Source: a virus
Taxonomy: Duplodnaviria > Heunggongvirae > Uroviricota > Caudoviricetes
DNA: 23,379 bases
IMG/VR virus record: IMGVR_UViG_2690316028_000004
Coordinates: 1-23,379 of that record
Direction: 5' to 3' (one strand)
Shown: in pieces, positions 4,003 to 18,356 of the stretch
How the letters are laid out: each line of letters begins with the position of its first letter
Position numbering within the stretch: position 1 is the stretch's first letter
Translations under genes and position numbers: made by a program
The notes under the pieces: model-generated
Seen by the model: the letters and a program-made list of their open reading frames with translations, nothing else
The model's database searches: none
Told to the model about the DNA's origin: nothing

Positions 4003-4447
4003 GTTTCACCGTCCACATTTCTTCAGGTGCATCAGGTTCCGCTATAGCTTCAACGCTCGACACACTGCCGTCAGTGCTGACCAGCACACGTTCCGTCAGT
4101 TGCAGGTTCAGGCTGATATCACAGACATCGTTGCGCAGAATATCCACCTCAAAGGTGAATAGCTTTTCCCGTAACGCCGGGTTATTGATGGCATCGGGCT
4201 GGTTATCCCTCAGCCACAGCAAAACCGGGGCCATCAGCAGATTCTGGTCGCCGCTGAAATCTTCAATCACCGCGTTCAGGGTGTAACGGTACTCCCACGA
4301 CATGGAGCTGGCCCCCGTGGCAACCAGCGAACCGTTATCCACAAACAGATGCAGTTTGTCCGGGTTATTGCGGACATAAGGCACCGCTTTATTGAGGGCG
4401 TGGCGCAGGGATTGTGGTTTGTTCACTGTTTCGCTCCTGACACGCAA
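3995..4447 (-). CDS. R: Tail completion protein R
   Basis: 150-aa ORF in the P2 R position downstream of the lysis genes. Confidence 0.8.
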   Translation of the reverse strand: MRVRSETVNKPQSLRHALNKAVPYVRNNPDKLHLFVDNGSLVATGASSMSWEYRYTLNAVIEDFSGDQNLLMAPVLLWLRDNQPDAINNPALREKLFTFEVDILRNDVCDISLNLQLTERVLVSTDGSVSSVEAIAEPDAPEEMWTVKRG

Positions 4448-4679
4448 TAATCATGTCCACTTTGTCTGCACAGACCGCCCAGGCGGCCTCCGTTTCATCC
4501 AGCAACGCGTTCAGATCACCGTTAGTGCGCGGCGCTGCCTGATCCAGCCGACACGGCGTCACTCGCGGACAACCACTGACGGTAAGCTGCACCTCCGGTG
4601 AGCGTCGGACGTTCCCGCAGCCGGATAATGTCAGCAGGCAAAGGAGTATCAGCCCAGCGGCGTAAATCCTCGTTCTCAC
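4389..4679 (-). CDS. lysC: LysC-like outer-membrane spanin lipoprotein (Rz1 equivalent), nested out of frame in lysB
   Basis: 96-aa ORF starting MRTRIYAAGLILLCLLTLSGCG, a lipoprotein signal with a lipobox cysteine. It is embedded in and extends beyond the lysB reading frame. Confidence 0.65.
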   Translation of the reverse strand: MRTRIYAAGLILLCLLTLSGCGNVRRSPEVQLTVSGCPRVTPCRLDQAAPRTNGDLNALLDETEAAWAVCADKVDMIIACQERNSEQTTIPAPRPQ

Positions 4680-4950
4680 GTTTCAGTTCCTCAATCCGAT
4701 GTTGTCGTTGTCTCAGCAGCGCGCTGGTCTGTTCTGCTTCGGCATAGAGCCGCGCCTGCTCCCGGTTATTGGTTTCAGTCAGAATGGACAGGCTGATAAG
4801 CTGGCTGTTGCTCTTTGCCAGTGCCTGGCTTTTGCTCCGCAGCTCGTCTGCCTGCGTGCTGATGGTCTGGCTGGCATCAGCCAGCCGCCACGTCTGCCAG
4901 CCCAGCGACGCCAGTAATAACGCCAGCACAACCAGCAGCAACCGGTTCAT
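4522..4950 (-). CDS. lysB: LysB-like inner-membrane spanin (Rz equivalent)
   Basis: 142-aa ORF with an N-terminal TM segment (LLLVVLALLLASLGW) followed by a coiled-coil-like, charged region; in the P2 lysB position. Confidence 0.75.
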   Translation of the reverse strand: MNRLLLVVLALLLASLGWQTWRLADASQTISTQADELRSKSQALAKSNSQLISLSILTETNNREQARLYAEAEQTSALLRQRQHRIEELKRENEDLRRWADTPLPADIIRLRERPTLTGGAAYRQWLSASDAVSAGSGSAAH

Positions 4951-5324
4951 GCTGCTACCTGTTGCGCCATCTGGTTACGAGTGATCCAGAAGGCAATAAC
5001 GGTCAGCAGATAAAAGACCAGGGTAATGGCCCACCCCGTCCAGGCGAGACTTACGACAATCAGCAATCGCATAACCCAGCTGATAAATACGTTTTCTTTT
5101 CGGGTAATGCTCTTCAGCAAAGATGCCCTCAACTCCTGCCAGAGCGGGCCGTTCTTAATTAACGCAACCAGTGCTACCGGAATTGCCCCCCATGTCAGCA
5201 GGCAGGCTACCCAGACACCGGACGCTGCCAGTACCGGAAAAATCCCCTGCGGATACACCATTGCTGCGATTAACAGCGCCATCCATAACATCAGAAACAG
5301 TCCGCTGATTAATTTCTTTTTCAT
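4947..5324 (-). CDS. lysA: LysA-like lysis-timing membrane protein
   Basis: 125-aa protein with several hydrophobic helices, between K and lysB as in P2. Confidence 0.7.
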   Translation of the reverse strand: MKKKLISGLFLMLWMALLIAAMVYPQGIFPVLAASGVWVACLLTWGAIPVALVALIKNGPLWQELRASLLKSITRKENVFISWVMRLLIVVSLAWTGWAITLVFYLLTVIAFWITRNQMAQQVAA

Positions 5325-5325
5325 T

Positions 5326-5838
5326 TCAGTTTGCTCCCTGTAAACACCAGGCTATCTCCCGCGCACGGCGGTTATCCAGCCCCTGATTAAACACACCTTT
5401 TACATAAACCCAGCGCGGCAACTGTCGGCACGCATCCGCCCAGCGCCGCTGATTGAGCAATTTCACCAGCGTGGAGCTGCAGGCATTGCCCGTCCCCACG
5501 TTGAAGGCAAACGACACCGTAGCGTCATACACCTTCTGTGGTGGCTGTTGCTTCACACACCTTTCCAGTGCCCGCTCCACACGCAGCACGTTGGAGATCA
5601 GCCCTTCTGCTGCCTGTCGTTCCGTGATTGTTTTGCCGGGAATGACGCCCGATGTATTACCAATGCCGTCGGTCCAGACACCCGCGCTGCACTGATACGG
5701 CTGCAGACGACAGCCTTCGTAATCGGCAATCAGTTTCAGCCCCTCCACGGAGGTATGAAGCTGCTGAAAACCCGGCAGCGTGGCAGCAATAGCCAGCACA
5801 GCCCCGACAAGGCAGCGTTTAACGATTGATGGATTCAT
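5326..5838 (-). CDS. K: Endolysin K (phage lysozyme, GH24-like), possibly signal-anchor-release type
   Basis: 170-aa ORF with the phage lysozyme catalytic region (YEGCRLQPYQCSAGVWTDGIGNT) and an N-terminal hydrophobic stretch (CLVGAVLAIAATLPGF). Confidence 0.85.
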   Translation of the reverse strand: MNPSIVKRCLVGAVLAIAATLPGFQQLHTSVEGLKLIADYEGCRLQPYQCSAGVWTDGIGNTSGVIPGKTITERQAAEGLISNVLRVERALERCVKQQPPQKVYDATVSFAFNVGTGNACSSTLVKLLNQRRWADACRQLPRWVYVKGVFNQGLDNRRAREIAWCLQGAN

Positions 5839-6034
5839 AGTCCTCCCGCGAGATCTGCCCGTCGCGCAGAAGCTGGTAGGCTTTGTGTTTGTAGTACCAG
5901 TTGATAGCCAGCATCAGCACACCGATCATCAGGCCGCCCAGCGTTGAGGCATCCTTGATGGACAAATCGCCCAGCCAGGCCAGCACGACGGCGATGCAAT
6001 ACGTGATAAAGGCGCTGATTCGCTCAAGCGTCAT
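5819..6034 (-). CDS. Y: Holin Y
   Basis: 71-aa small membrane protein with two hydrophobic segments and a charged C-terminus, just upstream of the endolysin. Confidence 0.75.
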   Translation of the reverse strand: MTLERISAFITYCIAVVLAWLGDLSIKDASTLGGLMIGVLMLAINWYYKHKAYQLLRDGQISREDYESINR

Positions 6035-7454: not shown

Positions 7455-8513
7455 TTATGCTCCGGCTTCTGCGGCGGCGGCGCTGAAGTCGCCAATCTGG
7501 ATGTTTTCCACCAGTGCTGCGCAGCGGTAGTCCTCAACCACATAGGCTTCGTTAACGGATTCAAAGTTTTCAATCCGGTCACGTTTCGGGTTGTCGATAA
7601 CCGAACGGCGGCGGGTGTCCTCCTGCCAGTAAATGGACAGGTTATCCAGACGGGTGATCAGCAGCGCATTCGGCGGGAAGAACGGCGCACGCACGGCCTG
7701 CAGACCACCCATGCGTTTCTGACTGATGATCATATCGGCAGCCAGTTTTTCACTGTTTTCCTGCTCTTTGTTGACCAGCGGGAAATACTTGTCAGACAGC
7801 AGCTCACGACCGCAAATCACCACCAGATCGTCATCGTCCTGGTAGACCACGTCGATAAGCTCATTGACCGCATCCATCACCACGGCGTCCAGGTTGGCAT
7901 ATTCGCCACCTTTCCCGACTTTCACCGCACCCGGTATGGTTTCACCGCCCGTGGTGGTGCTGCCCATGACGTGATCCGGTGCATCCTCACGGATTTTCTG
8001 CAGCCAGCCTTTGTTCACATCCTGCAGCAGCGGGTTTTCGCTACGGTTAGAGGTTTTCGCACGCTTCACTCCGTTAAAGCCAATCATGATGCGGTCCAGT
8101 GCCTGACGTTTCACGATGGCGTTACGGATACGCACCTGGAAATCCTGAAACTTCGCCCACAGGTCCAGCTTCGCGTAGGTCAGCACCGTGTCAAAGTTGG
8201 TCTGTTCGCATTTGTATTCCACATCGACCATCAGCGTCGGATCGACAGGTTCACGCTCTTTCGCGGTGGTGTCAGTGGTTCCGGCAATGGTGCTGCCAAC
8301 ACCCAGCCCCAGCAGCTGACCGGACTGCTCAGTCACTGGCGTGACGTTAATCAGCGTCAGGAAAGCGGCGGACTGCTGGATCTGGTCTTCCAGCGTCTGC
8401 TGCACAGACGGCTCTACAGTGAACTTGCTGGACAGTTCTTCAACTGCCACACCGTTCAGACGTGCCAGTTGCTGCAGGTAAGCGTTAAAAGCAAAGCGGG
8501 TATTCTTCTTCAT
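7455..8513 (-). CDS. N: Major capsid protein N
   Basis: 352-aa ORF, close to P2 gpN length, between scaffold O and M. The 503-aa plus-strand ORF 7122..8633 is its antisense shadow. Confidence 0.9.
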   Translation of the reverse strand: MKKNTRFAFNAYLQQLARLNGVAVEELSSKFTVEPSVQQTLEDQIQQSAAFLTLINVTPVTEQSGQLLGLGVGSTIAGTTDTTAKEREPVDPTLMVDVEYKCEQTNFDTVLTYAKLDLWAKFQDFQVRIRNAIVKRQALDRIMIGFNGVKRAKTSNRSENPLLQDVNKGWLQKIREDAPDHVMGSTTTGGETIPGAVKVGKGGEYANLDAVVMDAVNELIDVVYQDDDDLVVICGRELLSDKYFPLVNKEQENSEKLAADMIISQKRMGGLQAVRAPFFPPNALLITRLDNLSIYWQEDTRRRSVIDNPKRDRIENFESVNEAYVVEDYRCAALVENIQIGDFSAAAAEAGA

Positions 8514-8529
8514 CAGGTTTTGTGCTCCA

Positions 8530-9363
8530 TCAGCAATTGGTCAGAGTGTCAGCGGGGGCGTTACCGCCTGTTGCACGCTGGCGGTAGTCCTGGCGGCTGT
8601 CTTCATGACTCAGCTTATTCACCAGTTCGTTAAAGGCGGTTTGCTGCTCCTGCAGAGCAGTCTCCAGCTCAGACAGGCGTTCTTCCTGCTCAGACAGGGA
8701 TTTTTCGGTGCGTGCGCTCAGGTTCTGCTGCTCAGTGGCGACCAGCTCCACGGCCTTATGCACATCAGAGAACCGGGCGTCATCGGACTGCTCTTTTTTG
8801 GTAAACAGCGCCGTGACACGGGCAAACAGGGACGGCTTGTCCTCCTGGATTTCTTCCAGTTCGATCACCGTTTCCTCTGCAGCGGTAAAGAGATTGGCAG
8901 GATTCTGCTTGCGGTTTGCCAGCGGGTTATGGGCTGCACTGGCGCTGAATGTCAGCATTTCCGTACCCAGACTGGCAGGGTCATCAGTGGCAGCCAGGCC
9001 GACCAGGTAGGCTTTGCCCGTATCAGCGAACTTCGGGCTGACTTCCATAGAGGTGAATAATTTCTGGCCTTTTTTCACCAGTTCCACCAGGGACTCCGTT
9101 GGCTCAACGTCGGCATACAGCGCCATCTTGCCTGCCAGCGGACCTTCCGTGATTTCTTCAGCAAACAGCGCCGTCACCTTGCCGTAGCGGTTAAAGGTGC
9201 TGTCCGGCAGATAAGACTTGATGTGCTCAAGGTTAATCAGCGCGGTATACACCGCCGGGTTGTAGCTGGCTGCCATCTGTTCCAGCCATTCACGCTGGAT
9301 TTCGCGTCCGTCGGTGGTGGCACCTTCCACCCCGATGCGAAAACGCTTTGCTTTCACTGTCAT
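8530..9363 (-). CDS. O: Capsid scaffolding protein O
   Basis: 277-aa ORF, first gene of the minus-strand head operon, divergent from P. Confidence 0.85.
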   Translation of the reverse strand: MTVKAKRFRIGVEGATTDGREIQREWLEQMAASYNPAVYTALINLEHIKSYLPDSTFNRYGKVTALFAEEITEGPLAGKMALYADVEPTESLVELVKKGQKLFTSMEVSPKFADTGKAYLVGLAATDDPASLGTEMLTFSASAAHNPLANRKQNPANLFTAAEETVIELEEIQEDKPSLFARVTALFTKKEQSDDARFSDVHKAVELVATEQQNLSARTEKSLSEQEERLSELETALQEQQTAFNELVNKLSHEDSRQDYRQRATGGNAPADTLTNC

Positions 9364-9505: not shown

Positions 9506-11272
9506 ATGAACACCACACTGACACCCGCAGATCTCGATCCCCGTCGGCAGGCCATGCTGCTGTACTTTCAGGGATACCGCGTAGCCCGCATTGCTGAAAT
9601 GCTGGGCGAGAAAGTTGCAACCGTTCACAGCTGGAAAAAACGCGACAAGTGGGGTGACTATGGGCCGCTGGATCAGATGCAGCTCACCACCGCCGCACGC
9701 TACTGCCAGCTCATTATGAAGGAGCACAAAGAAGGGAAAGATTTAAAAGAGATTGACCTGCTGGCGCGCCAGTCGGAGCGCCACGCGCGGATCGGCAAGT
9801 TTAACAATGGCGGCAACGAAGCCGACTTAAACCCTAACGTCGCCAACCGCAACAAAGGCCCGCGCCGTCAGCCGGAAAAGAATGTTTTCACCGATGAGCA
9901 GATTGAGAAGCTGGAAGAAATCTTCCATTCCTCCATGTTCAACTACCAGCGCCACTGGTGGGAAGCCGGAAAAGCCAACCGCATCCGCAACCTGCTGAAG
10001 TCACGCCAGATCGGCGCGACCTTTTACTTTGCCCGTGAAGCCCTGATTGACGCCCTGCTTACCGGACGTAACCAGATTTTCCTTTCCGCCAGCAAGGCAC
10101 AGGCCCACGTCTTTAAGCAGTACATCATCGACTTCGCCAAAGAAGTGGAGGTGGAGTTGAAAGGCGATCCGATGGTGCTTCCTAACGGGGCCACGCTTTA
10201 CTTCCTCGGCACCAATGCCCGCACTGCCCAGAGTTATCACGGCAACCTGTATCTGGATGAATATTTCTGGATACCGAAATTCCAGGAGCTGCGCAAAGTG
10301 GCTTCCGGTATGGCTATTCACAAAAAATGGCGACAAACCTATTTTTCCACGCCATCCAGCCTGACTCACAGTGCTTATCCGTTCTGGTCCGGTGCGCTGT
10401 TCAATCGTGGGCGCAACAAAGCCGATAAGGTGGACATCGACCTGTCCCACAGCAATCTGGCCCCCGGCCTGCTGTGCGCAGACGGGCAGTACCGCCAGAT
10501 AGTCACTGTGGAAGATGCGGTGCGCGGCGGCTGTAACCTGTTCGACCTCGACCAGTTGCGCATGGAGTACAGCCCGGACGAATACCAGAACCTACTGATG
10601 TGCGAGTTTGTGGACGATCTCGCGTCCGTGTTTCCGCTCAGCGAGCTGCAGGCGTGCATGGTGGACAGTTGGGAAGTCTGGACCGACTTTCATGCTCTGG
10701 CCCTGCGCCCGTTTGGCTGGCGCGAAGTGTGGATCGGTTATGACCCGGCAAAAGGTACGCAGAACGGCGACAGCGCCGGATGCGTGGTGGTGGCACCGCC
10801 AGCCGTGCCGGGCGGTAAGTTTCGCATTCTTGAGCGTCACCAGTGGCGCGGGATGGACTTCCGCGCCCAGGCTGACGCAATCAAAAAACTGACCGAGCAG
10901 TACAACGTGACCTACATCGGCATCGACTCAACCGGCGTTGGTCACGGGGTTTACGAGAACGTGAAAGCGTTCTTTCCTGCCGTCCGGGAGTTTGTCTACA
11001 ACCCCAACGTTAAAAACGCCCTGGTACTCAAGGCCTACGACATTATCAGCCACCGCCGTCTGGAGTTTGACGCCGGACATACCGACATTGCGCAGTCATT
11101 TATGGCAATCCGTCGCGCCACCACCGCCAGTGGCAACCGCCCGACCTATGAAGCCAGCCGCAGCGAAGAAGCCAGCCACGCCGATCTGGCATGGGCAACG
11201 ATGCACGCACTGTTTAACGAACCGCTGCAGGGCGAATCCGCCAATACCAGCAATATTGTGGAGATTTTTTGA
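9506..11272 (+). CDS. P: Terminase large (ATPase) subunit P
   Basis: 588-aa ORF, close to P2 gpP length, divergent from O and overlapping the Q start. Confidence 0.9.
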   Translation: MNTTLTPADLDPRRQAMLLYFQGYRVARIAEMLGEKVATVHSWKKRDKWGDYGPLDQMQLTTAARYCQLIMKEHKEGKDLKEIDLLARQSERHARIGKFNNGGNEADLNPNVANRNKGPRRQPEKNVFTDEQIEKLEEIFHSSMFNYQRHWWEAGKANRIRNLLKSRQIGATFYFAREALIDALLTGRNQIFLSASKAQAHVFKQYIIDFAKEVEVELKGDPMVLPNGATLYFLGTNARTAQSYHGNLYLDEYFWIPKFQELRKVASGMAIHKKWRQTYFSTPSSLTHSAYPFWSGALFNRGRNKADKVDIDLSHSNLAPGLLCADGQYRQIVTVEDAVRGGCNLFDLDQLRMEYSPDEYQNLLMCEFVDDLASVFPLSELQACMVDSWEVWTDFHALALRPFGWREVWIGYDPAKGTQNGDSAGCVVVAPPAVPGGKFRILERHQWRGMDFRAQADAIKKLTEQYNVTYIGIDSTGVGHGVYENVKAFFPAVREFVYNPNVKNALVLKAYDIISHRRLEFDAGHTDIAQSFMAIRRATTASGNRPTYEASRSEEASHADLAWATMHALFNEPLQGESANTSNIVEIF

Positions 11273-12309
11273 TGGGAAAGAGTAAGAAGAACCGAGCTGC
11301 GGCGACGAAACAGATCCAGCTTAAAAGTCAAACTACAGCCGAAGCATTCAGCTTCGGCGATCCCGTTCCTGTTCTGGACCGCCGTGAACTGCTGGACTAT
11401 GTGGAATGCGTACAGATGGACCGTTGGTATGAGCCGCCCGTCAGCTTTGACGGACTGGCGCGCACCTTCCGCGCCGCCGTGCATCACAGTTCCCCGATTG
11501 CAGTAAAGTGCAACATTCTGACCAGTACCTATATCCCTCATCCGCTGCTCAGCCAGCAGGCTTTTTCGCGTTTTGTGCAGGACTATCTGGTATTTGGTAA
11601 CGCCTACCTGGAGAAACGCACGAACCGATTCGGTGAAGTTATCGCCCTTGAGCCTGCCCTGGCAAAATACACCCGACGTGGATTAGACCTGGATACCTAC
11701 TGGTTTGTGCAATACGGCATGACAACGCAACCGTATCAGTTCACGAAAGGCAGCATTTTTCACCTGATGGAACCGGATATCAACCAGGAGATCTACGGCC
11801 TGCCCGGTTATCTTTCTGCCATTCCGTCAGCCCTGCTCAACGAGTCCGCCACGCTGTTCCGTCGAAAGTATTACATTAACGGCAGTCATGCAGGCTTCAT
11901 CATGTACATGACCGACGCCGCGCAGAACCAGGAGGATGTAAACAACCTCCGTAACGCGATGAAAAGCGCCAAAGGACCAGGTAACTTCCGCAATCTGTTT
12001 ATGTACTCGCCTAACGGCAAAAAGGACGGACTTCAGATCATCCCATTGTCAGAAGTCGCGGCGAAGGATGAGTTTCTGAATATCAAAAATGTCAGCCGCG
12101 ATGACATGATGGCAGCGCACCGTGTGCCACCGCAAATGATGGGGATTATGCCGAATAATGTTGGGGGGTTTGGGGATGTGGAGAAGGCAAGCCGTGTATT
12201 CGTCCGAAATGAGCTAATGCCACTACAAAAGCGATTACAGGAGATGAATGATTGGCTTGGCAAGGAGGCGATACGGTTTGATACCTACTCGCTAGATATA
12301 GCCCCATAA
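11269..12309 (+). CDS. Q: Portal protein Q
   Basis: 346-aa ORF, close to P2 gpQ length, with ATGA overlap to P. Confidence 0.9.
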   Translation: MMGKSKKNRAAATKQIQLKSQTTAEAFSFGDPVPVLDRRELLDYVECVQMDRWYEPPVSFDGLARTFRAAVHHSSPIAVKCNILTSTYIPHPLLSQQAFSRFVQDYLVFGNAYLEKRTNRFGEVIALEPALAKYTRRGLDLDTYWFVQYGMTTQPYQFTKGSIFHLMEPDINQEIYGLPGYLSAIPSALLNESATLFRRKYYINGSHAGFIMYMTDAAQNQEDVNNLRNAMKSAKGPGNFRNLFMYSPNGKKDGLQIIPLSEVAAKDEFLNIKNVSRDDMMAAHRVPPQMMGIMPNNVGGFGDVEKASRVFVRNELMPLQKRLQEMNDWLGKEAIRFDTYSLDIAP

Positions 12310-12313
12310 TAAG

Positions 12314-12337
12314 AAAAGCCACCGTTTGGTGGCTTTT
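12314..12337. terminator. Bidirectional intrinsic terminator between convergent Q and the cargo operon
   Basis: AAAAGCCACC-GTTT-GGTGGCTTTT is a perfect 10-bp stem with a 4-nt loop, flanked by A-run and T-run, lying between the Q stop (12309) and the minus-strand stop at 12344. Confidence 0.8.
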
Positions 12338-12343
12338 CTTCAT

Positions 12344-13084
12344 TTACTCAATAGGTTCAAACTCATCTTGAGGAATCAGCGTCGATTGACAGGCTTGGCT
12401 TAGTACCCCTGATAATTTACATAATAACCGATAGTTATGAGGAGCATCATCGCTAATCTTTTCGACCGTTAAAGTGATTGATTTTGGATCATCCAATAAC
12501 ATCTTCTTGATGTCATTACTTAAATACCTAGGGCAGTAACCAACGATTTCAGCTGGTTTATCTGCACGAACGACAACAGCATCCCCATCGTATTCATTTT
12601 GAAGATCCAAGCAAAGACGCAAAATTTGCCCCGGTTTCAATTCAGATACACGAGCATTAGCTAAGCTATTCAAGTAACCAAGTCCATGTAAGAAGAAAAA
12701 ATGCTCAAAGTTACCATCAGAATCAAAATCAATTTTTTTGAAAATCTGCAGCTGATCAGTGCTTCGTAAGCCTCCCGAGCGAGCAAGAATATCGATAGGA
12801 TTTACCTTATCTTCTTCAAATCCAAGCCATTTAATGAAACTCGGATACTCTGGACGTCTCGGTGATAAAAGGCGATTTTTAAAAAGAGGAAACAATTCTT
12901 CCGATACATAAGTTTCACGAACATCACTCATGCCGCTAAACTTTGTAAATTTAGAAGATTTAAGAGCACCTTTGGTATACCTGAAAACATACCCCGATTT
13001 GCGCTCTTGCAAGTTACCAACAACATGCCAGTCTCTGGTATCTGGTGCCTGCCATGCGACGTAAACGGAGTTTGTATTAGTCAT
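12344..13084 (-). CDS. Protein with HipA-N/HipS-like N-terminal region fused to a C-terminal HIRAN domain
   Basis: N-terminus: VVGNLQERKSGYVFRYTKG and LFPLFKNRLLSPRRPEY resemble the HipA N-terminal/HipS pattern. C-terminus: HGLGYL...ELKPGQILRLCLDLQNEYDGDAVVV...EIVGYCPRYLSNDIKKMLLDD fits the HIRAN motif layout. AT-rich; start overlaps the stop of the upstream kinase (ATGA). Confidence 0.6.
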   Translation of the reverse strand: MTNTNSVYVAWQAPDTRDWHVVGNLQERKSGYVFRYTKGALKSSKFTKFSGMSDVRETYVSEELFPLFKNRLLSPRRPEYPSFIKWLGFEEDKVNPIDILARSGGLRSTDQLQIFKKIDFDSDGNFEHFFFLHGLGYLNSLANARVSELKPGQILRLCLDLQNEYDGDAVVVRADKPAEIVGYCPRYLSNDIKKMLLDDPKSITLTVEKISDDAPHNYRLLCKLSGVLSQACQSTLIPQDEFEPIE

Positions 13085-13995
13085 TCTAGTAACCTTCTGC
13101 GATTTTCCATTACCATTAACGTTGCAAATCTACGTGCACTGTCGGATATACACGATGAAGGCACTTGGTTAAACACATCTGTAATGGAATCTTCTGTTAA
13201 AACGCTCAACTTACCTAACCAATGGTCGCGAGCGGCAACTCTCCCTTCAACTGCATGTTGAAATGCTTCAACAGTCAGCAAGGGCTTTTTATCAGTTTTT
13301 GCTTTGAATAGCTCAGAGCGAGCTTTTCTTACAAAACATGGGATTTGTCGATTTTTATCTTTAGTATTAAGCCGTTCGTTACGCTCATCATCTAACATCT
13401 CCCTTCCTAAACTAGCGGCATGATCGTATGTTGGACACAAAAACTGCTCACCAGTTTCATTGTTAAGCATGATTGCCCAATTTTCATGGTGGCGATCTTG
13501 ATTACTCACAAGTGCATCGAGCATCAAATATCCACAAAATACATCTGCTGCATTTAGCCCGGTTAGATCATATACACTCGGAGGAGGCTTGATAGATTCC
13601 CTATCTAAACAACCCAAGACCCTTGTGACAGTGTGTTCTCTGACCCTTACCGGCTTTTCCCCGGCTTGTAAAGGCCCAGGATAATCGAATGTCGAACTGT
13701 GAAGCACTTCATTTCCCATTACCATCCGGAAACCAGATGGAATGATATTCTGAGTCACCACACCGAATCGACCATTGTATCGCGCCAAATCATAGCTAGC
13801 ATGTGGAATGTTAAGCAAATGACATAACTCAGCAGCACACTTTTCAGACCAATGCTCGCCAGTACCTGGCCTAGAGTACTTAAACAACTGCAAATTTACA
13901 GTGTCATCGGAGAAATAGAACCAAAACTTCTCTTTGGTTCCTAACTGTTCAAGATCGTTAGCTACGGGGCTAAGCTCTACCAATTGGTATGGCAT
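13081..13995 (-). CDS. HipA-like Ser/Thr kinase core (HipT-like, lacks the HipA N-subdomain)
   Basis: 304 aa with a Gly-rich GTKEKF loop near the N-terminus, a catalytic-loop-like LDALVSNQDRHHENW and a downstream PTYDH, matching the HipA_C motif arrangement. AT-rich; first gene of a two-gene minus-strand operon. Confidence 0.6.
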   Translation of the reverse strand: MPYQLVELSPVANDLEQLGTKEKFWFYFSDDTVNLQLFKYSRPGTGEHWSEKCAAELCHLLNIPHASYDLARYNGRFGVVTQNIIPSGFRMVMGNEVLHSSTFDYPGPLQAGEKPVRVREHTVTRVLGCLDRESIKPPPSVYDLTGLNAADVFCGYLMLDALVSNQDRHHENWAIMLNNETGEQFLCPTYDHAASLGREMLDDERNERLNTKDKNRQIPCFVRKARSELFKAKTDKKPLLTVEAFQHAVEGRVAARDHWLGKLSVLTEDSITDVFNQVPSSCISDSARRFATLMVMENRRRLLE

Positions 13996-14088
13996 CTGAC
14001 ATCCCTGTTTAGCGGATTATGAATAAGTTAGGTTCCATTTTATCCAAACATTGTCAAATACCCTAAGATTTATTAGATGATAGAGCGA

Positions 14089-14108
14089 TACTGTATGTAT
14101 GTCCAGCA
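14089..14108. promoter_or_regulatory. Weak candidate LexA-box-like dyad upstream of the kinase operon
   Basis: ATACTGTATGTATGTCCAGC has CTG-N10-CAG spacing and an AT-rich centre, about 95 bp upstream of the kinase start codon. It is imperfect (CCAG rather than ACAG). Confidence 0.25.
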
Positions 14109-14147
14109 ATCAAATCAATATATAACTCTTATATGGCTTAACGCGCG

Positions 14148-14166
14148 CTCGTATCCCCGCCACGCC
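14148..14166 (-). other. cos: cos-like cohesive end site
   Basis: The reverse complement reads GGCGTGGCGGGGATACGAG, matching the first 13 nt of the 19-nt P2/186 cohesive end as I recall it (GGCG[A/T]GGCGGGGAAAGCA...). It lies in the non-coding AT-rich gap on the 3' side of Q. Confidence 0.5.
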
Positions 14167-14552
14167 TGCCCGCTTTATGTAGTGGTTTTCATGCACTTGC
14201 ATGACATAAACAAAAGCCCGCCATTCCTGGCGGGCCTCAACTAAAACGATCCTCAAACGATCATGCGAATTCATGCGGCATAGACATGCATTGTTGCTTT
14301 ATCGATCTTTTCTTACTTCAAGTGAGTCCTTATGGCCTCCTGTCCACCTTGCGCTGCGCGTTCCCCCTGCCTCCCTTTGTCATAACTTAGATTTAATCCT
14401 CATAAATCAAGAGGTACTACACAAAGTACCAACTCACAACACTCAACAAACAGCCAATAATGAGCATAATACTAACTTGACTACTCCATAAAAAAATACG
14501 TAAACTACATTCATCAACAGTATTTCTCTAAAAAAGACGGGGTCACAATTCA

Positions 14553-15083
14553 ATGGCTACTACCAACTGTATTACTGTACTTACTGCTCGTGGTTTAACA
14601 GAGATTTTGAACACAGGGGGAAGCCAAGCATGGAGACTTGACGCCAGCCATGCAGCTAAGCACGAATATTTAGTTTGTGTACAAAATTCGAGAAAGGACT
14701 GGGGATCACAAGAAGCAAAACATCATCATGCTTTTATGATCGGTCGAATCTCGGGAGTAAGCAGGGCTCCAGAAAACCCTAAACGCTGGATCATAAACAT
14801 CAATTCTTATGCTGAAATTGACATCCCAGGACAATGGGATGGCAATCGGAATCCCGTTTCTTATCGCAACCTCAAAGACATTGGCATTGAGGCTGACAAG
14901 TTGGAATTTAAAGCTCTTCCCAAATTAACCCCGACTAATTCGATTGTCGATCAAGCGGGTGATGAGTACGAAGAAGAAGAAGAAAATGTAGTTAAGCCGT
15001 TAACACTTCAGGAGGCAAAAGCAGGGCTAGCCCTATACTTTGGTGTTAATGAAGAAAATATTCAAATAACTATACAAGGTTAA
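14553..15083 (+). CDS. Hypothetical protein (176 aa, acidic C-terminal stretch) at the old/tin-equivalent cargo position
   Basis: ORF in an AT-rich island between cos and the SOS operon, on the strand opposite its neighbours. No motif recognised with confidence. Confidence 0.6.
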   Translation: MATTNCITVLTARGLTEILNTGGSQAWRLDASHAAKHEYLVCVQNSRKDWGSQEAKHHHAFMIGRISGVSRAPENPKRWIININSYAEIDIPGQWDGNRNPVSYRNLKDIGIEADKLEFKALPKLTPTNSIVDQAGDEYEEEEENVVKPLTLQEAKAGLALYFGVNEENIQITIQG

Positions 15084-15304
15084 GGCTTTTAAACCGGCAT
15101 AAGTGGCCATTACTTTTCGTTCGAAGTGGCGCTTCCGGTCTAACAAGCATCTAATAGGATTTTCGTATCTATCACAAATCCCAAAAGGTAATTTGCAGCC
15201 CATCATACGTAGCAAAACTAACGTTCGGTTAAATCTGAGCGGAAGTGAAAATAATGGTTACTGTATTTTACCCCATGACTAATGCCCCACTAAACTAGTT
15301 GTTC

Positions 15305-15347
15305 AACGTTGCTGACGTCAGAAGCAAGTTCAGACGCCAGCAACGTT
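15305..15347. terminator. Long inverted repeat / candidate bidirectional terminator between convergent genes
   Basis: AACGTTGCTGACGTC ... GACGCCAGCAACGTT forms a 15-bp stem with one G-U-compatible mismatch and a 13-nt loop, followed by TTTCTT on the plus strand. It lies between the 176-aa gene and the DinI-like gene. Confidence 0.5.
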
Positions 15348-15349
15348 TC

Positions 15350-15583
15350 TTAATGCAGCCAGCTGTCGTCTTCCCACACTTTCTGCATAATTTTCATCAC
15401 TTGCTTCCTTTCTTCGTCCAGTTGCAGTCCGGTCAGTTCCACACCGTTAGAGCTACCTTTGCGGATGCGAATTACCGTTTTTGGATATAGGGGGCGCAGA
15501 TTGCGGTAAAGCTCGTATTCAAGGGCGTCCAGGGTAGACTGGCTAATCTTCTGCTCTTTATCGATCATTATTTCAATGCGCAT
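15350..15583 (-). CDS. DinI-family protein (SOS-regulated; possible Tum-like antirepressor component)
   Basis: 77 aa beginning MRIEIMIDK... and ending ...VWEDDSWLH, matching the DinI pattern (MRIEV...W at the C-terminus). Downstream of a LexA-box promoter. Confidence 0.75.
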   Translation of the reverse strand: MRIEIMIDKEQKISQSTLDALEYELYRNLRPLYPKTVIRIRKGSSNGVELTGLQLDEERKQVMKIMQKVWEDDSWLH

Positions 15584-15594
15584 AAAAAGTCACC

Positions 15595-15783
15595 TCAACT
15601 GATGACATCCATTGAGCGGTTGTATTCATGGGTTCTGATTTTTGCCATGAGTTCATCAGTTAATTCAGAAACCCACTGCAGAGCCAGCCCCTTCTCTTCA
15701 TCACTACACTCACTAGCCGCTACAAGCTTAAGAAAAAAATCAATGCGCTGGAGCTTCAAAGACTCCAAAAAATAGTCCTGCAT
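15595..15783 (-). CDS. Small hypothetical protein, first gene of the SOS operon
   Basis: 62-aa ORF directly downstream of the LexA-box promoter and 11 bp upstream of the DinI-like gene, in a different frame. Confidence 0.5.
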   Translation of the reverse strand: MQDYFLESLKLQRIDFFLKLVAASECSDEEKGLALQWVSELTDELMAKIRTHEYNRSMDVIS

Positions 15784-15810
15784 CTTTCCTCCTATGACAC
15801 CAAAGCAATA

Positions 15811-15866
15811 CTGTATACATAACCACTGTTTATATTTACAGTATATAATAATCTTACTGATGTAAA
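15811..15866 (-). promoter_or_regulatory. SOS promoter with LexA operator (p95/tum-like)
   Basis: Perfect CTGT-N8-ACAG at 15826..15841 (CACTGTTTATATTTACAGTAT) and an adjacent half-site (CTGTATACAT at 15811). On the minus strand TTTACA (-35), a 15-nt spacer and TATACT (-10) overlap the box. Confidence 0.7.
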
Positions 15867-15935
15867 ACGTTTTTTTACGTTCATCGGCCTGATATTCCTG
15901 GTATTATTAAGAGCACGAATTGTTAACCCGCGTAA

Positions 15936-18356
15936 TTAATACAGGTTCCGCCACTTATCATCTTCCTTCAGACGCTGGTTCCGATAGAAGATACGCAAGC
16001 CTGCTCCTGATGGAATACTGCCGCCGCGAAGGAGTAAATCGACCTCTTTCTCGCTGCCATCAAATCCTCTGGACTTCAGTTCATAGACGAGCTGCTGTCG
16101 TTGATGGTCTGTAATTCGCTGTTTGTAGTCTCTACGCCGTTTCGGTTTCACCAGACGTAACCTTGCAGCCAGTTCCCGGCGCTCTTTTTTGTTCATACTG
16201 TGCAGGTAATCGTGCAACTCCCTGTCATCCATGCGGGTAATATCCGTTCTGGTGTCCCCATCAGCTGATTTATCTTTCTCCTGTTGGTTCAAATTTTCAG
16301 CAAGGGGACAGTTATTGCCACGAGTCCGAGTCCAAGGGGCGCAAGCGCCCTGGTCGGCTGCCGCCTCCTGAACGTCAACGGCTTTACGAACCATTTTCCA
16401 CTTCACTGCATGAGTGCAGATCTTGCCCTCTGCAATGGGTGACCAGATGCCATAAATACGAATACCGTGATCGCCATAGGCGGTCGGCTCTTCATTGATT
16501 TCATAAGCGGTTCTGATCAAGTGATATTTGCGAGGAACCAGCACGCCGCCCTGCCTCATAATGTAGGTGGCAAAACAGCCAGCATCAGCAGCAGCCAGGA
16601 TGGCATCAAGGCGCGGGTTATCCAGTACCGGCGCACCTGCTTTTTTGTCACCCTGCTGCCTTGCCGCCTGACCAGCCAACAACCGCAGTTCACGGTAAGC
16701 CTGACGCCCTGGAATACCAAAGAAGCGGAATTGCTGAACACGATGCAGAGACGCCCAGGCATTAACGTATTCAGCGTTATCACGCAGGGATTTACCCGTT
16801 TCCTTGCTGATCTCGCCAGCCAGACCACGCCCGTCAATGTTCTTACTGATGTATTTCGCGATGTAGCTTGTTGGCGTACCTTTGCGCGGGTTTATCAGCT
16901 CAGACTTAAAGCGTGGTCCTGTGTTATTACCCAGCTCCTCGCGGTCTTCACGAATGGCAAACTTACGCAACAAAGCAGTAATGGCGCGGCGATCTTTTTT
17001 GCGCATAAAACACAACAGGTGCCAGTGAACTGTACCGTCATGATGCGGCTCAGCCACCCGCACGCCATACCAGCGCAATCCGGCTTTGTGCATCGCCTTA
17101 CGAAATGCAGCAAACATGCCGACCAGATAATCACTGCTTTGTCTTACCGTCGCATTTGTCCAGGTCGGGTTGGGCCTGCCGTTATTTAGCGTGGAATGGA
17201 AACGTGACGGACAGGTGATGGTGTAGAAAACGGCGCAGTCACCGCGCATTTCCGCGATAAGCTCCAGACCTTTAACACAGGCCATCATCTCATTGCGGCG
17301 ATGTGCCGGGTTGCTGCTGCTGGCGTTTACCACATCTTCCATATCCAGCGTGTCGCCGTCTTCGTTCACCAGTTCATGAGAACGGAAAAACTCCAGCGAC
17401 TTACGGCGCTGCTCACGTTTATGCGTCACGGCTTCATAGCTGACATAGGGAGATGCTTTTTTGCTGACCAGGCAGACAGCACGCAACTGCTCTTCCCGCC
17501 ATTCGCAACGCATCTTCCACAATTTTCGATACCACCAGTCGGCGCAAAGCATACGTGCCAGCGAACCCGGTATGAGTTCATAGGGCACGGGTTTGCGGCG
17601 GTTTCTTTTCCGGCGGAGTTGCTCAAACGCAGGCGGGATAACATCCAGTCGCAGGGTTTCCGCTGCCACCTTTTCCCATGTCTTGCGGATTTCTTCTGGC
17701 TTAACGTCATCGGTGGCATATAAATCGCCACAAGCGGCATCAAGGCACATGCTCATATGCGCAGCTACCAGGGTGGACAGGCGCTTTACCTGATCCTGAC
17801 TCATTTCAGGCAGGATCAGCAGGCCCTCAAGCCCTTGATGGCTTGCCATAAAACGGAAAGAAGCGGATAGCTGACTGTCGCGTACACAATCCAGTCGCTC
17901 CAGACATGGCTTAATCGTCTCACGCAAATAGCGGGAATAAGCCTTTGGCCTGCCCAGGCTGCTGAAGTATTCGATACGTTGCATCAGCGGCTTGCTGATG
18001 TGGGTTGGCTGGGCGCTGACATCTGCCAGAATGACCATGTCCGGGTTAAAAAGCTGCTGCTCATGCGCAAGCTTTGCGCGGCTAATGAGCTTATCCTGCT
18101 CCATTTCGCGCTGGACAGGATCACGGGATTCATTAAAGAAATAACGCTCCCAGACCTGCTCACTCAGTGCCTCGCGGCGCAGTTGTTCCTGCTCGTTATC
18201 GGCAGCATACAGAGTGATCAGGTTTGAAAGTGCAGACTCCGGCGCAAATTCCGCCGGGTCCAGATAAGGGTTAATGGCCTTTTTCGGGCCGTTCCATGAA
18301 AATGATGCAGCGGCCTCGTTAAAGCCGCTAGAGTTGCTCATATCGTCATGACTCAT
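15936..18356 (-). CDS. A: Replication initiation protein A (rolling-circle nickase type)
   Basis: 806-aa ORF in the P2/186 gene A position at the end of the early operon; its start overlaps the Dam stop (ATGA). Confidence 0.85.

Follow-up and report, generated by a model that had tools for sequence, protein, structure and literature searches.

The window analysed here is a stretch of 23,379 nucleotides from a virus of the Caudoviricetes (IMG/VR record IMGVR_UViG_2690316028_000004, positions 1 to 23,379). Between the phage portal gene Q and the cos region it contains a two-gene cassette on the minus strand, in which hipI encodes a short kinase of the HipA superfamily and hipN, downstream of it, encodes a partner combining a HipS-like with a HIRAN domain. 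The locus was identified, with very little doubt left, as a genuine member of hipIN, also listed as PDC-M03, a candidate defence family that is named and catalogued and remains uncharacterised. Between Q and cos the cassette stands as a unit of its own, the horizontally acquired and self-contained cargo of a 186/P2-like Escherichia coli prophage. The complete reading, a hipIN module in a P2-type hotspot with a proposed mechanism of DNA-end sensing and abortive infection, is given a probability of about 0.6.

The cassette is composed as follows.

13081 to 13995, minus strand: hipI, open reading frame (ORF) of 304 amino acids, short HipA-superfamily Ser/Thr kinase core
Within HipI: Gly-rich loop G19 to K23, catalytic D167 and N172, Mg-binding D191
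12344 to 13084, minus strand: hipN, ORF of 246 amino acids, two-domain partner coupled to hipI
12731 to 13084, minus strand: HipS-like N-terminal domain of HipN (about amino acids 1 to 118)
12401 to 12706, minus strand: HIRAN domain of HipN (amino acids 127 to 228) with the invariant Q162-N163-x-[Y/H/F]-D166

Both ORFs lie where the initial annotation had placed them. The junction sequence of the two genes is GAATGACT, in which the stop codon of hipI and the start codon of hipN share the tetranucleotide ATGA (4 nt overlap), and by this overlap they are translationally coupled, as had been proposed. The AT-rich character of the cassette was likewise found again. The GC content drops from approximately 0.55–0.60 in the backbone and structural genes to 0.38–0.45 over positions 12000 to 16000, while the cassette itself is only 1.9 kb in length.

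The pair was named hipIN, for the kinase HipI and its partner HipN, by Gerdes, Baerentsen and Brodersen in mBio in 2021 (PMC8262856). HipI was defined there as a short Hip kinase of clade XI without N-subdomain-1, approximately 279 to 321 amino acids in length, with the Gly-rich loop near the N-terminus. The kinase of the window agrees with this definition (304 amino acids, Gly-rich loop at residues 19 to 23), and the motifs GTKEK, DRHHEN and YDH, already quoted in the initial annotation, are invariant in 27 homologues. The architecture is the same as well, with a short kinase lacking N-subdomain-1 and a downstream gene for a HipS-like plus HIRAN protein, and no architectural difference was found. 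The published modules belong to Proteobacteria and Cyanobacteria within one subclade, and both groups are also represented among the loci of this study; the P2-hotspot location is absent from the accessible part of their discussion. In total, 14 hipIN modules were described without experiments, and Table 1 of the article gives "None" for experimentally analysed modules of clade XI. The authors also described a fused single-chain form with kinase, HipS and HIRAN, termed HipL, and proposed that HIRAN recognises phage DNA ends, upon which the kinase is activated and the infection aborted (PMC8262856).

In PADLOC-DB v2 the best model was PDC-M03A for HipI (E 2.1e-122, amino acids 2 to 304) and PDC-M03B for HipN (E 6.8e-93, amino acids 1 to 244), in both cases nearly end to end, and the A and B genes are adjacent, which is what defines PDC-M03. 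This entry, which two recent papers explain as the pairing of a HipA with a HIRAN protein (A HipA-like, B HIRAN), has candidate status only and no phenotype is attached to it. Rousset et al. (2022) defined the cos-proximal gpA-gpQ hotspot in P2-like phages, a site that carries validated defence systems, and their Table S5A contains the exact pair, WP_001146828 and WP_000185756, in this hotspot (PMC9122126). In agreement with that, the cassette belongs to the variable genes that adjoin cos between A and the portal gene Q. A pair of Vibrio crassostreae is labelled "HIRAN-kinase" in Table S6 of the same study, and its proteins show 35% identity to each of the window proteins. The RefSeq labels are "HIRAN domain-containing protein" for HipN (WP_000185756.1) and "HipA domain-containing protein" for the kinase gene. 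PHROGs assigns both proteins to families of unknown function, no NCBIfam family was found for HipI or HipN, and HipA and HIRAN go unmentioned in the main text of Payne et al. (2024), of Vassallo et al. (2022) and of Rousset et al. (2022), of which only the last has them, in its supplementary tables.

The initial annotation had considered the combination of a HipT-like kinase with a HipS-HIRAN partner to be undescribed. This claim is refuted, since hipIN was named in 2021, PDC-M03 is catalogued and the accessions stand in the P2 hotspot table. The mechanistic idea was not new either, as the same hypothesis of a HIRAN domain sensing phage DNA ends is contained in Gerdes et al. (PMC8262856). The possibility had also been allowed for that the pair would prove to be a well-characterised system with a name: named and catalogued it is, characterised it is not. 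Architecture, name, candidate-defence status, presence in the hotspot and the mechanistic hypothesis are already published.

The assignment of HipI rests on its motifs and on its fold. In an alignment with the 27 homologues (57–90% identity) the motifs G19-T-K-E-K23-F24, D167-R-H-H-E-N172 and P188-T-Y-D191-H192 were invariant. Searches of the PDB with the single sequences gave no match for HipI and none for HipN. The HipI profile matched only the Helicobacter pylori kinase CtkA (E 5.5e-4) and the HipN profile did not match any entry. A comparison of folds was required because these sequence searches were nearly empty. The structure of HipI predicted with AlphaFold 2 reached a predicted local distance difference test (pLDDT) value of 83.5 and a predicted template modelling score (pTM) of 0.85. 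The model begins directly at the N-lobe of the kinase and N-subdomain-1 is absent. In Foldseek the top match was CtkA (PDB 3akj; E 2.6e-10, TM-scores 0.66/0.73), followed by HipA of E. coli and Shewanella (E 3.7e-6 and weaker) and HipT of Legionella (E 1e-5 to 2e-4); weak matches include VPS34, ATM, ATR and mTOR. Using hhalign, D167, N172 and D191 of HipI were placed on D309, N314 and D332 of HipA from E. coli K-12, in an alignment that is statistically weak and is taken for residue correspondence alone. The candidate activation-loop region (amino acids 100 to 120) has a low pLDDT, and no residue-level equivalent was identified in it. A precomputed match to the Pfam family HipA_C (PF07804) is present in many HipI homologues, and HipI is a member of the HipA superfamily on a divergent branch. 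HipI represents the core of a HipA-superfamily kinase, its catalytic motifs intact and its lid subdomain (N-subdomain-1) missing. With respect to the HipT-like short kinase that had been proposed, the core without N-subdomain-1 was found, while the nearest solved structure is CtkA and not HipT.

For HipN, the Pfam model HIRAN (PF08797) was matched by amino acids 127 to 228 with 51.3 bits at a threshold of 24.7, as expected from the initial annotation. The structure predicted with AlphaFold 2 reached a pLDDT of 89 and a pTM of 0.84, and the fold search on the predicted structures confirms both the HipA-type kinase and the HipS-like/HIRAN assignments. The HIRAN motif Q162-N163-x-[Y/H/F]-D166 is invariant in the homologues and was aligned with GNQYDDNAI of lp_0118, although a profile of the HIRAN part only gave just a weak match to this protein in the PDB (E 0.39) and nothing else. 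D166 is the putative equivalent of the Asp that binds the 3′-OH in HLTF. Residues 20 to 72 of HipN were placed by hhalign on residues 11 to 65 of K-12 HipA, again in a statistically weak alignment taken for residue correspondence alone. HipN thus supplies in trans the HipS/HipA-N-like domain that is absent from HipI, fused to a HIRAN domain with a conserved N-x-Y-D motif.

Several known systems share parts of this arrangement. In the HipBST system (E. coli O127, Legionella) the genes form a tricistronic operon hipB-hipS-hipT with the HipS gene upstream, whereas in the window the kinase gene comes first and the HipS-like gene second. HipBST includes the helix-turn-helix (HTH) protein HipB, but there is no HipB or HTH gene in the hipIN locus. 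The HipS fold alone is shared, and HipS is free-standing in HipBST and fused to HIRAN here. The kinase HipT is only distantly related to HipI, with Foldseek E-values of 1e-5 to 2e-4 and no sequence match. The HipBA system of E. coli K-12 shares the kinase fold, and D309, N314 and D332 of HipA align with the catalytic Asp/Asn and the Mg-binding Asp of HipI. However, in HipA the N-subdomain is part of the same chain (in cis), and HipA is controlled by the HTH repressor HipB; upstream of hipI there are cos and a terminator, and no HipB. In HipL all three domains follow each other in unchanged order on one polypeptide, in contrast to the two ORFs of the window with a stop codon within the ATGA overlap. 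CtkA (JHP940, PDB 3akj) is the closest solved structure to HipI at approximately 15% identity. It is a stand-alone secreted kinase and, to our knowledge, has no HipS or HIRAN partner. The system HipAD/DS-6, like hipIN, combines a HipA-family kinase with a partner other than HipB, which consists of DUF3037 and DUF1829 instead of HipS-like and HIRAN domains. It is an experimentally validated anti-phage system that requires the catalytic residue, and so a precedent from another HipA-family kinase (Brenes and Laub, 2025; DefensePredictor, PMC13092281).

In a protein collection clustered at 90% identity, 955 relatives of HipI (E ≤ 1e-5) and 535 of HipN were found. A search against clusters of 50% identity with HipN resulted in 1,226 clusters (E ≤ 1e-3); nearly all of the best 150 of these are approximately 240–260 amino acids long and aligned across both domains. 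For the analysis of the gene neighbourhoods, one genome per species was scanned, which yielded 308 genomes with a HipN relative, and 80 loci were inspected. In 71 of these 80 loci, hipN was directly preceded by a kinase gene of the same family and orientation, the genes mostly overlapping or abutting. The loci were distributed over Gamma- and Betaproteobacteria, Verrucomicrobiota, Planctomycetota, Cyanobacteriota, Campylobacterota, Nitrospirota, Bacteroidota and other phyla. The pairing of hipI and hipN, the conservation of which had been named as a check, is conserved across phyla, and the coupling is tight and ancient. Neither a third conserved component nor a HipB-like gene was found, every flanking family being limited to at most 13 of the 71 loci.

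The most common neighbours within 2.5 kb in the 71 loci with kinase and HipN were the HsdR family (13 loci) and the HsdM family (8 loci). Frequently, hipIN thus forms part of a type I restriction-modification operon. One example is given for each.

L038, positions 1 to 2466: HsdR
L045, positions 4213 to 5853: HsdM

One of the nine exceptions among the 80 loci is truncated by a contig end. The other eight contain a full-length HipN (HipS-like plus HIRAN) without the kinase, the HipN match lying at about positions 8001 to 8750 of the locus. In four of them it is positioned beside or between HsdS and HsdR (L036, L065, L067, L079). It follows an SNF2 helicase of the ZorD/DpdE type in L047 and HD and DarG-like genes in L053, and precedes DrmA in L029 and prokaryotic Argonaute (pAgo) in L028, where the contig ends approximately 240 bp upstream of HipN and a kinase beyond its end is possible. 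These loci suggest that the HipS-like plus HIRAN unit is also able to operate with a partner that is not a kinase. Kinase-independent use of the HipS-like domain is not mentioned in the accessible parts of the papers on the family.

Among 5,426 complete E. coli genomes the allele of the window was detected in 21, always on the chromosome and with at least 99% identity. A second E. coli allele with about 67% nucleotide identity was found in 30 further genomes, including O157:H7. One representative (L086; NZ_CP016625.1, 1126819–1128478) is located in a non-P2 island together with YfjI, a KAP NTPase gene and a remnant of ISL3, adjoining cdiBA. Elements of 14–15 kb from Vibrio cyclitrophicus, deposited as Vinavirales phages, carry hipI-hipN beside an integrase (L082; PQ189286.1, 1303–3017), which is an independent carriage by an unrelated temperate element. 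A restriction of hipIN to P2-like phages was considered and rejected in view of the second E. coli allele in its non-P2 island and of the homologues in restriction-modification operons and Vibrio elements. Weak HipN-like matches were also obtained in Clostridioides phage phiCDKH02 and Rathayibacter phage NCPPB3778. Of the genes for diDNase, a deoxydinucleotide-specific nuclease, that were analysed in one study and came mostly from Actinomycetes, about one third are directly beside a HipA plus HIRAN pair (PMC11706625). This hints at a three-gene variant (diDNase, HipA, HIRAN) in Gram-positive bacteria; no diDNase gene was found in the window.

The surroundings of the cassette were analyzed for its boundaries and signals. 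The order of the annotated genes is Q, hipN, hipI, cos, orf176, DinI and A, and the position of the pair between Q and cos is as the initial annotation had described it. The flanking features are the following.

11272 to 12309, plus strand: portal gene Q, ORF, RefSeq "phage portal protein", convergent with hipN
12312 to 12339, no strand: hairpin with a 12 bp stem between the convergent stop codons of Q and hipN
14077 to 14105, minus strand: sigma-70 promoter-like site TGGACA-17-TATCAT, approximately 80 nt upstream of the hipI ATG, 10 of 12 matches in a consensus scan
14133 to 14290, no strand: P2-like cos block, conserved across 94 P2-like phage records
14149 to 14166, minus strand: cos-like core GGCGTGGCGGGG, pattern match with 3 mismatches
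14213 to 14238, minus strand: intrinsic-terminator-like hairpin from a terminator scan, 11 pairs including 7 GC pairs, with a T tail

The hairpin at 12312–12339 folds as RNA with −21.2 kcal/mol (z −5.07), and none of 200 shuffled sequences was equally stable. It was not called in the consensus terminator scan, and it is probably a bidirectional terminator shared by Q and hipN. The site at 14077–14105 is merely a candidate promoter, since such sites are no more common in the region than in shuffled sequence. Within 13996–14420, the cos block at 14133–14290 is the only stretch matched by the 94 P2-like phage records. The core GGCGTGGCGGGG is taken to be cos-like because it matches a presumed P2/186 cos consensus with 3 mismatches. 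The second hairpin, at 14213–14238, would end leftward transcription of the early operon just before cos and so insulate hipIN from transcription upstream. The cassette is considered autonomous between Q and cos because it has its own promoter-like site, hairpins on both sides and the conserved cos block beyond; the promoter-like site and the terminator hairpin of its own are joined by the AT-rich composition.

The E. coli relatives are homologous from Q through hipIN up to position 14290 and divergent beyond it. In the P2 genome, old and tin lie on the A side of cos. The gpA-gpQ interval of the published hotspot cargo is the same as in the window, where hipIN is on the Q side, and in Table S5A the same HIRAN protein stands alongside cargo with DarT/Macro or Mrr_cat (PMC9122126). 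Since the relatives diverge past 14290 and the cargo combinations in this table differ, cos is flanked by two independently variable cargo slots, with hipIN on the Q side and other genes on the A side. In the A-side slot of the window there is an ORF of 176 amino acids (14553–15083, plus strand; WP_000246368.1, phrog_37247 of unknown function) without a match in Pfam, PADLOC or NCBIfam, adjoined by a DinI-like gene (15350–15583). This ORF may be another uncharacterised hotspot gene.

The best-matching genome is that of E. coli CFSAN061772 (NZ_CP042893.1, 2994627–3037019), which is 100% identical over positions 12200 to 14600 of the window. There, a 186/P2-like prophage of approximately 21.3 kb is present between ybjL and rcdA in two copies that stand in tandem and look identical, an arrangement for which a misassembly is possible. 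In each copy the tape-measure gene is truncated and most tail and lysis genes are absent. By these tandem copies, CFSAN061772 carries hipIN twice, in a defective prophage.

The defence contexts of the pair comprise the P2 hotspot, type I restriction-modification operons and other mobile islands, and from this genomic context a role in defence or as a toxin-antitoxin system is plausible. An anti-phage role of hipIN as such is judged fairly probable. In the proposed mechanism, HipN's HipS-like domain would restrain HipI in the way HipS restrains HipT. During infection, the HIRAN domain would bind free DNA 3′ ends, which could be the ends of the incoming genome, intermediates of replication or recombination, or degraded DNA of the host. 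Such binding would act allosterically on the complex of HipN and HipI and set off the kinase, which would phosphorylate an essential host factor, by analogy perhaps an aminoacyl-tRNA synthetase. Translation would then stop, the infection would abort and the lysogen population would be protected. The chain from DNA-end sensing through kinase release to translation arrest is put forward tentatively, with less than an even chance of being correct as a whole. More doubtful is the bolder statement that free DNA 3′ ends directly gate HipIN as a protein kinase, HipN being a HIRAN sensor that is portable and also clamps the kinase, and HipS-like plus HIRAN perhaps a modular sensor also used without a kinase.

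A number of observations weigh against the proposed reading. In the Pfam check suggested by the initial annotation only HIRAN passed: HipI reached 20.7 bits with HipA_C (threshold 30.5; amino acids 154 to 225 only) and HipN 16.3 bits with Couple_hipA (threshold 22.5), although for the HipS-like N-terminus predicted structure and fold search agree. The parallel check by structure prediction of each protein gave the expected folds. CtkA, the closest solved structure, is not an aminoacyl-tRNA synthetase kinase as far as we know. As kinase, HipS and HIRAN are fused in HipL, regulation and release cannot rely on dissociation, degradation or proteolysis of the partner, and an allosteric switch is more likely because all three domains are kept in one chain. 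The existence of kinase-less HipN homologues argues that HipN is more than an antitoxin. The hipIN pair is not among the systems cloned by Rousset et al., and pFR108 (Exonuclease + HipA), the sole HipA-containing P2 candidate that they cloned, is outside the three additional defensive systems of their main text (PMC9122126). A literature search found bioinformatic mentions of hipIN only and no experimental test of toxicity, neutralisation, DNA binding or phage protection, which may be different for subscription journals.

In the strongest alternative, the kinase would be completed and not inhibited by the HipS-like domain, and HIRAN would tether an active holoenzyme to DNA 3′ ends, where phage or host proteins associated with the DNA are phosphorylated. 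The outcome would be direct interference or a regulation of replication or packaging instead of translation arrest and suicide. The equivalent subdomain is integral to HipA, and kinase-less HipN genes stand beside DNA-acting enzymes, both of which are consistent with this explanation. Phylogenetically, HipN and HipL share HipS-like domains of a branch that is separate from HipS and from HipA-N (PMC8262856). That separation suits a holoenzyme, but it also leaves neither analogy secure, and free-standing HipS is an antitoxin in HipBST, the only characterised split system. A holoenzyme is regarded as unlikely.

Compared with this, it is quite improbable that hipIN acts as an addiction module, in which post-segregational killing stabilises the prophage or island and HIRAN serves as the DNA-binding antitoxin part, replacing HipB in autoregulation. 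The layout is that of a toxin-antitoxin system, with a homologue of kinase toxins translationally coupled to a HipS-like partner. Every occurrence of the pair is on a mobile element, and Gerdes et al. selected modules with a DNA-binding partner protein (PMC8262856). However, the characterised HIRAN domains bind DNA ends and not operators (PMC8262856). Between the promoter-like site and hipI only short repeats of chance quality were found and no convincing operator-like palindrome. Moreover, the fused HipL is incompatible with a differential decay of the antitoxin, and immunity agrees better with the recurrent embedding in defence hotspots and in type I restriction-modification operons.

That the cassette serves the life cycle of the prophage itself, through the cos ends in packaging, injection or induction and with no immunity function, was judged very improbable. 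The position of hipIN directly beside cos and the binding of DNA ends by HIRAN domains would agree with such a role (PMC8262856). But the allele is present in 21 of the 5,426 E. coli genomes as compared to 1,271 matched by a query including the end of the portal gene and the cos region, and hipIN is thus dispensable cargo. In addition, its composition is foreign to the backbone and the pair is also found in non-P2 islands, restriction-modification operons and unrelated Vibrio elements. An inert or decaying cargo, for which the missing tail and lysis genes and the truncated tape-measure gene of the host prophage might speak, is equally remote, as both ORFs are of full length, share at least 99% identity among 21 genomes and retain every invariant catalytic and HIRAN residue of a family that is conserved to identities as low as about 35%. 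Thus, a role in addiction only, in the biology of the prophage's own cos and as inert cargo are each less likely than the proposed DNA-end-sensing defence.

The finding of the genome scan in itself adds little. The E. coli allele, with its promoter-like site and a strong hairpin, is a compact native test case for the published hypothesis, and the kinase-less HipN-like proteins within restriction-modification operons may merit following. If hipIN works as proposed, it would represent a new principle of immune sensing, in which a HIRAN domain reads free DNA 3′ ends to switch on a HipA-type kinase. This would link persistence-type toxins to phage defence and would give HIRAN, mainly studied in fork-remodelling enzymes of eukaryotes, a signalling role in prokaryotes. 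The DNA-gated logic of HipIN would then parallel that of the eukaryotic PI3K-like kinases activated by DNA ends, the fold of which is distantly shared by the HipA superfamily.

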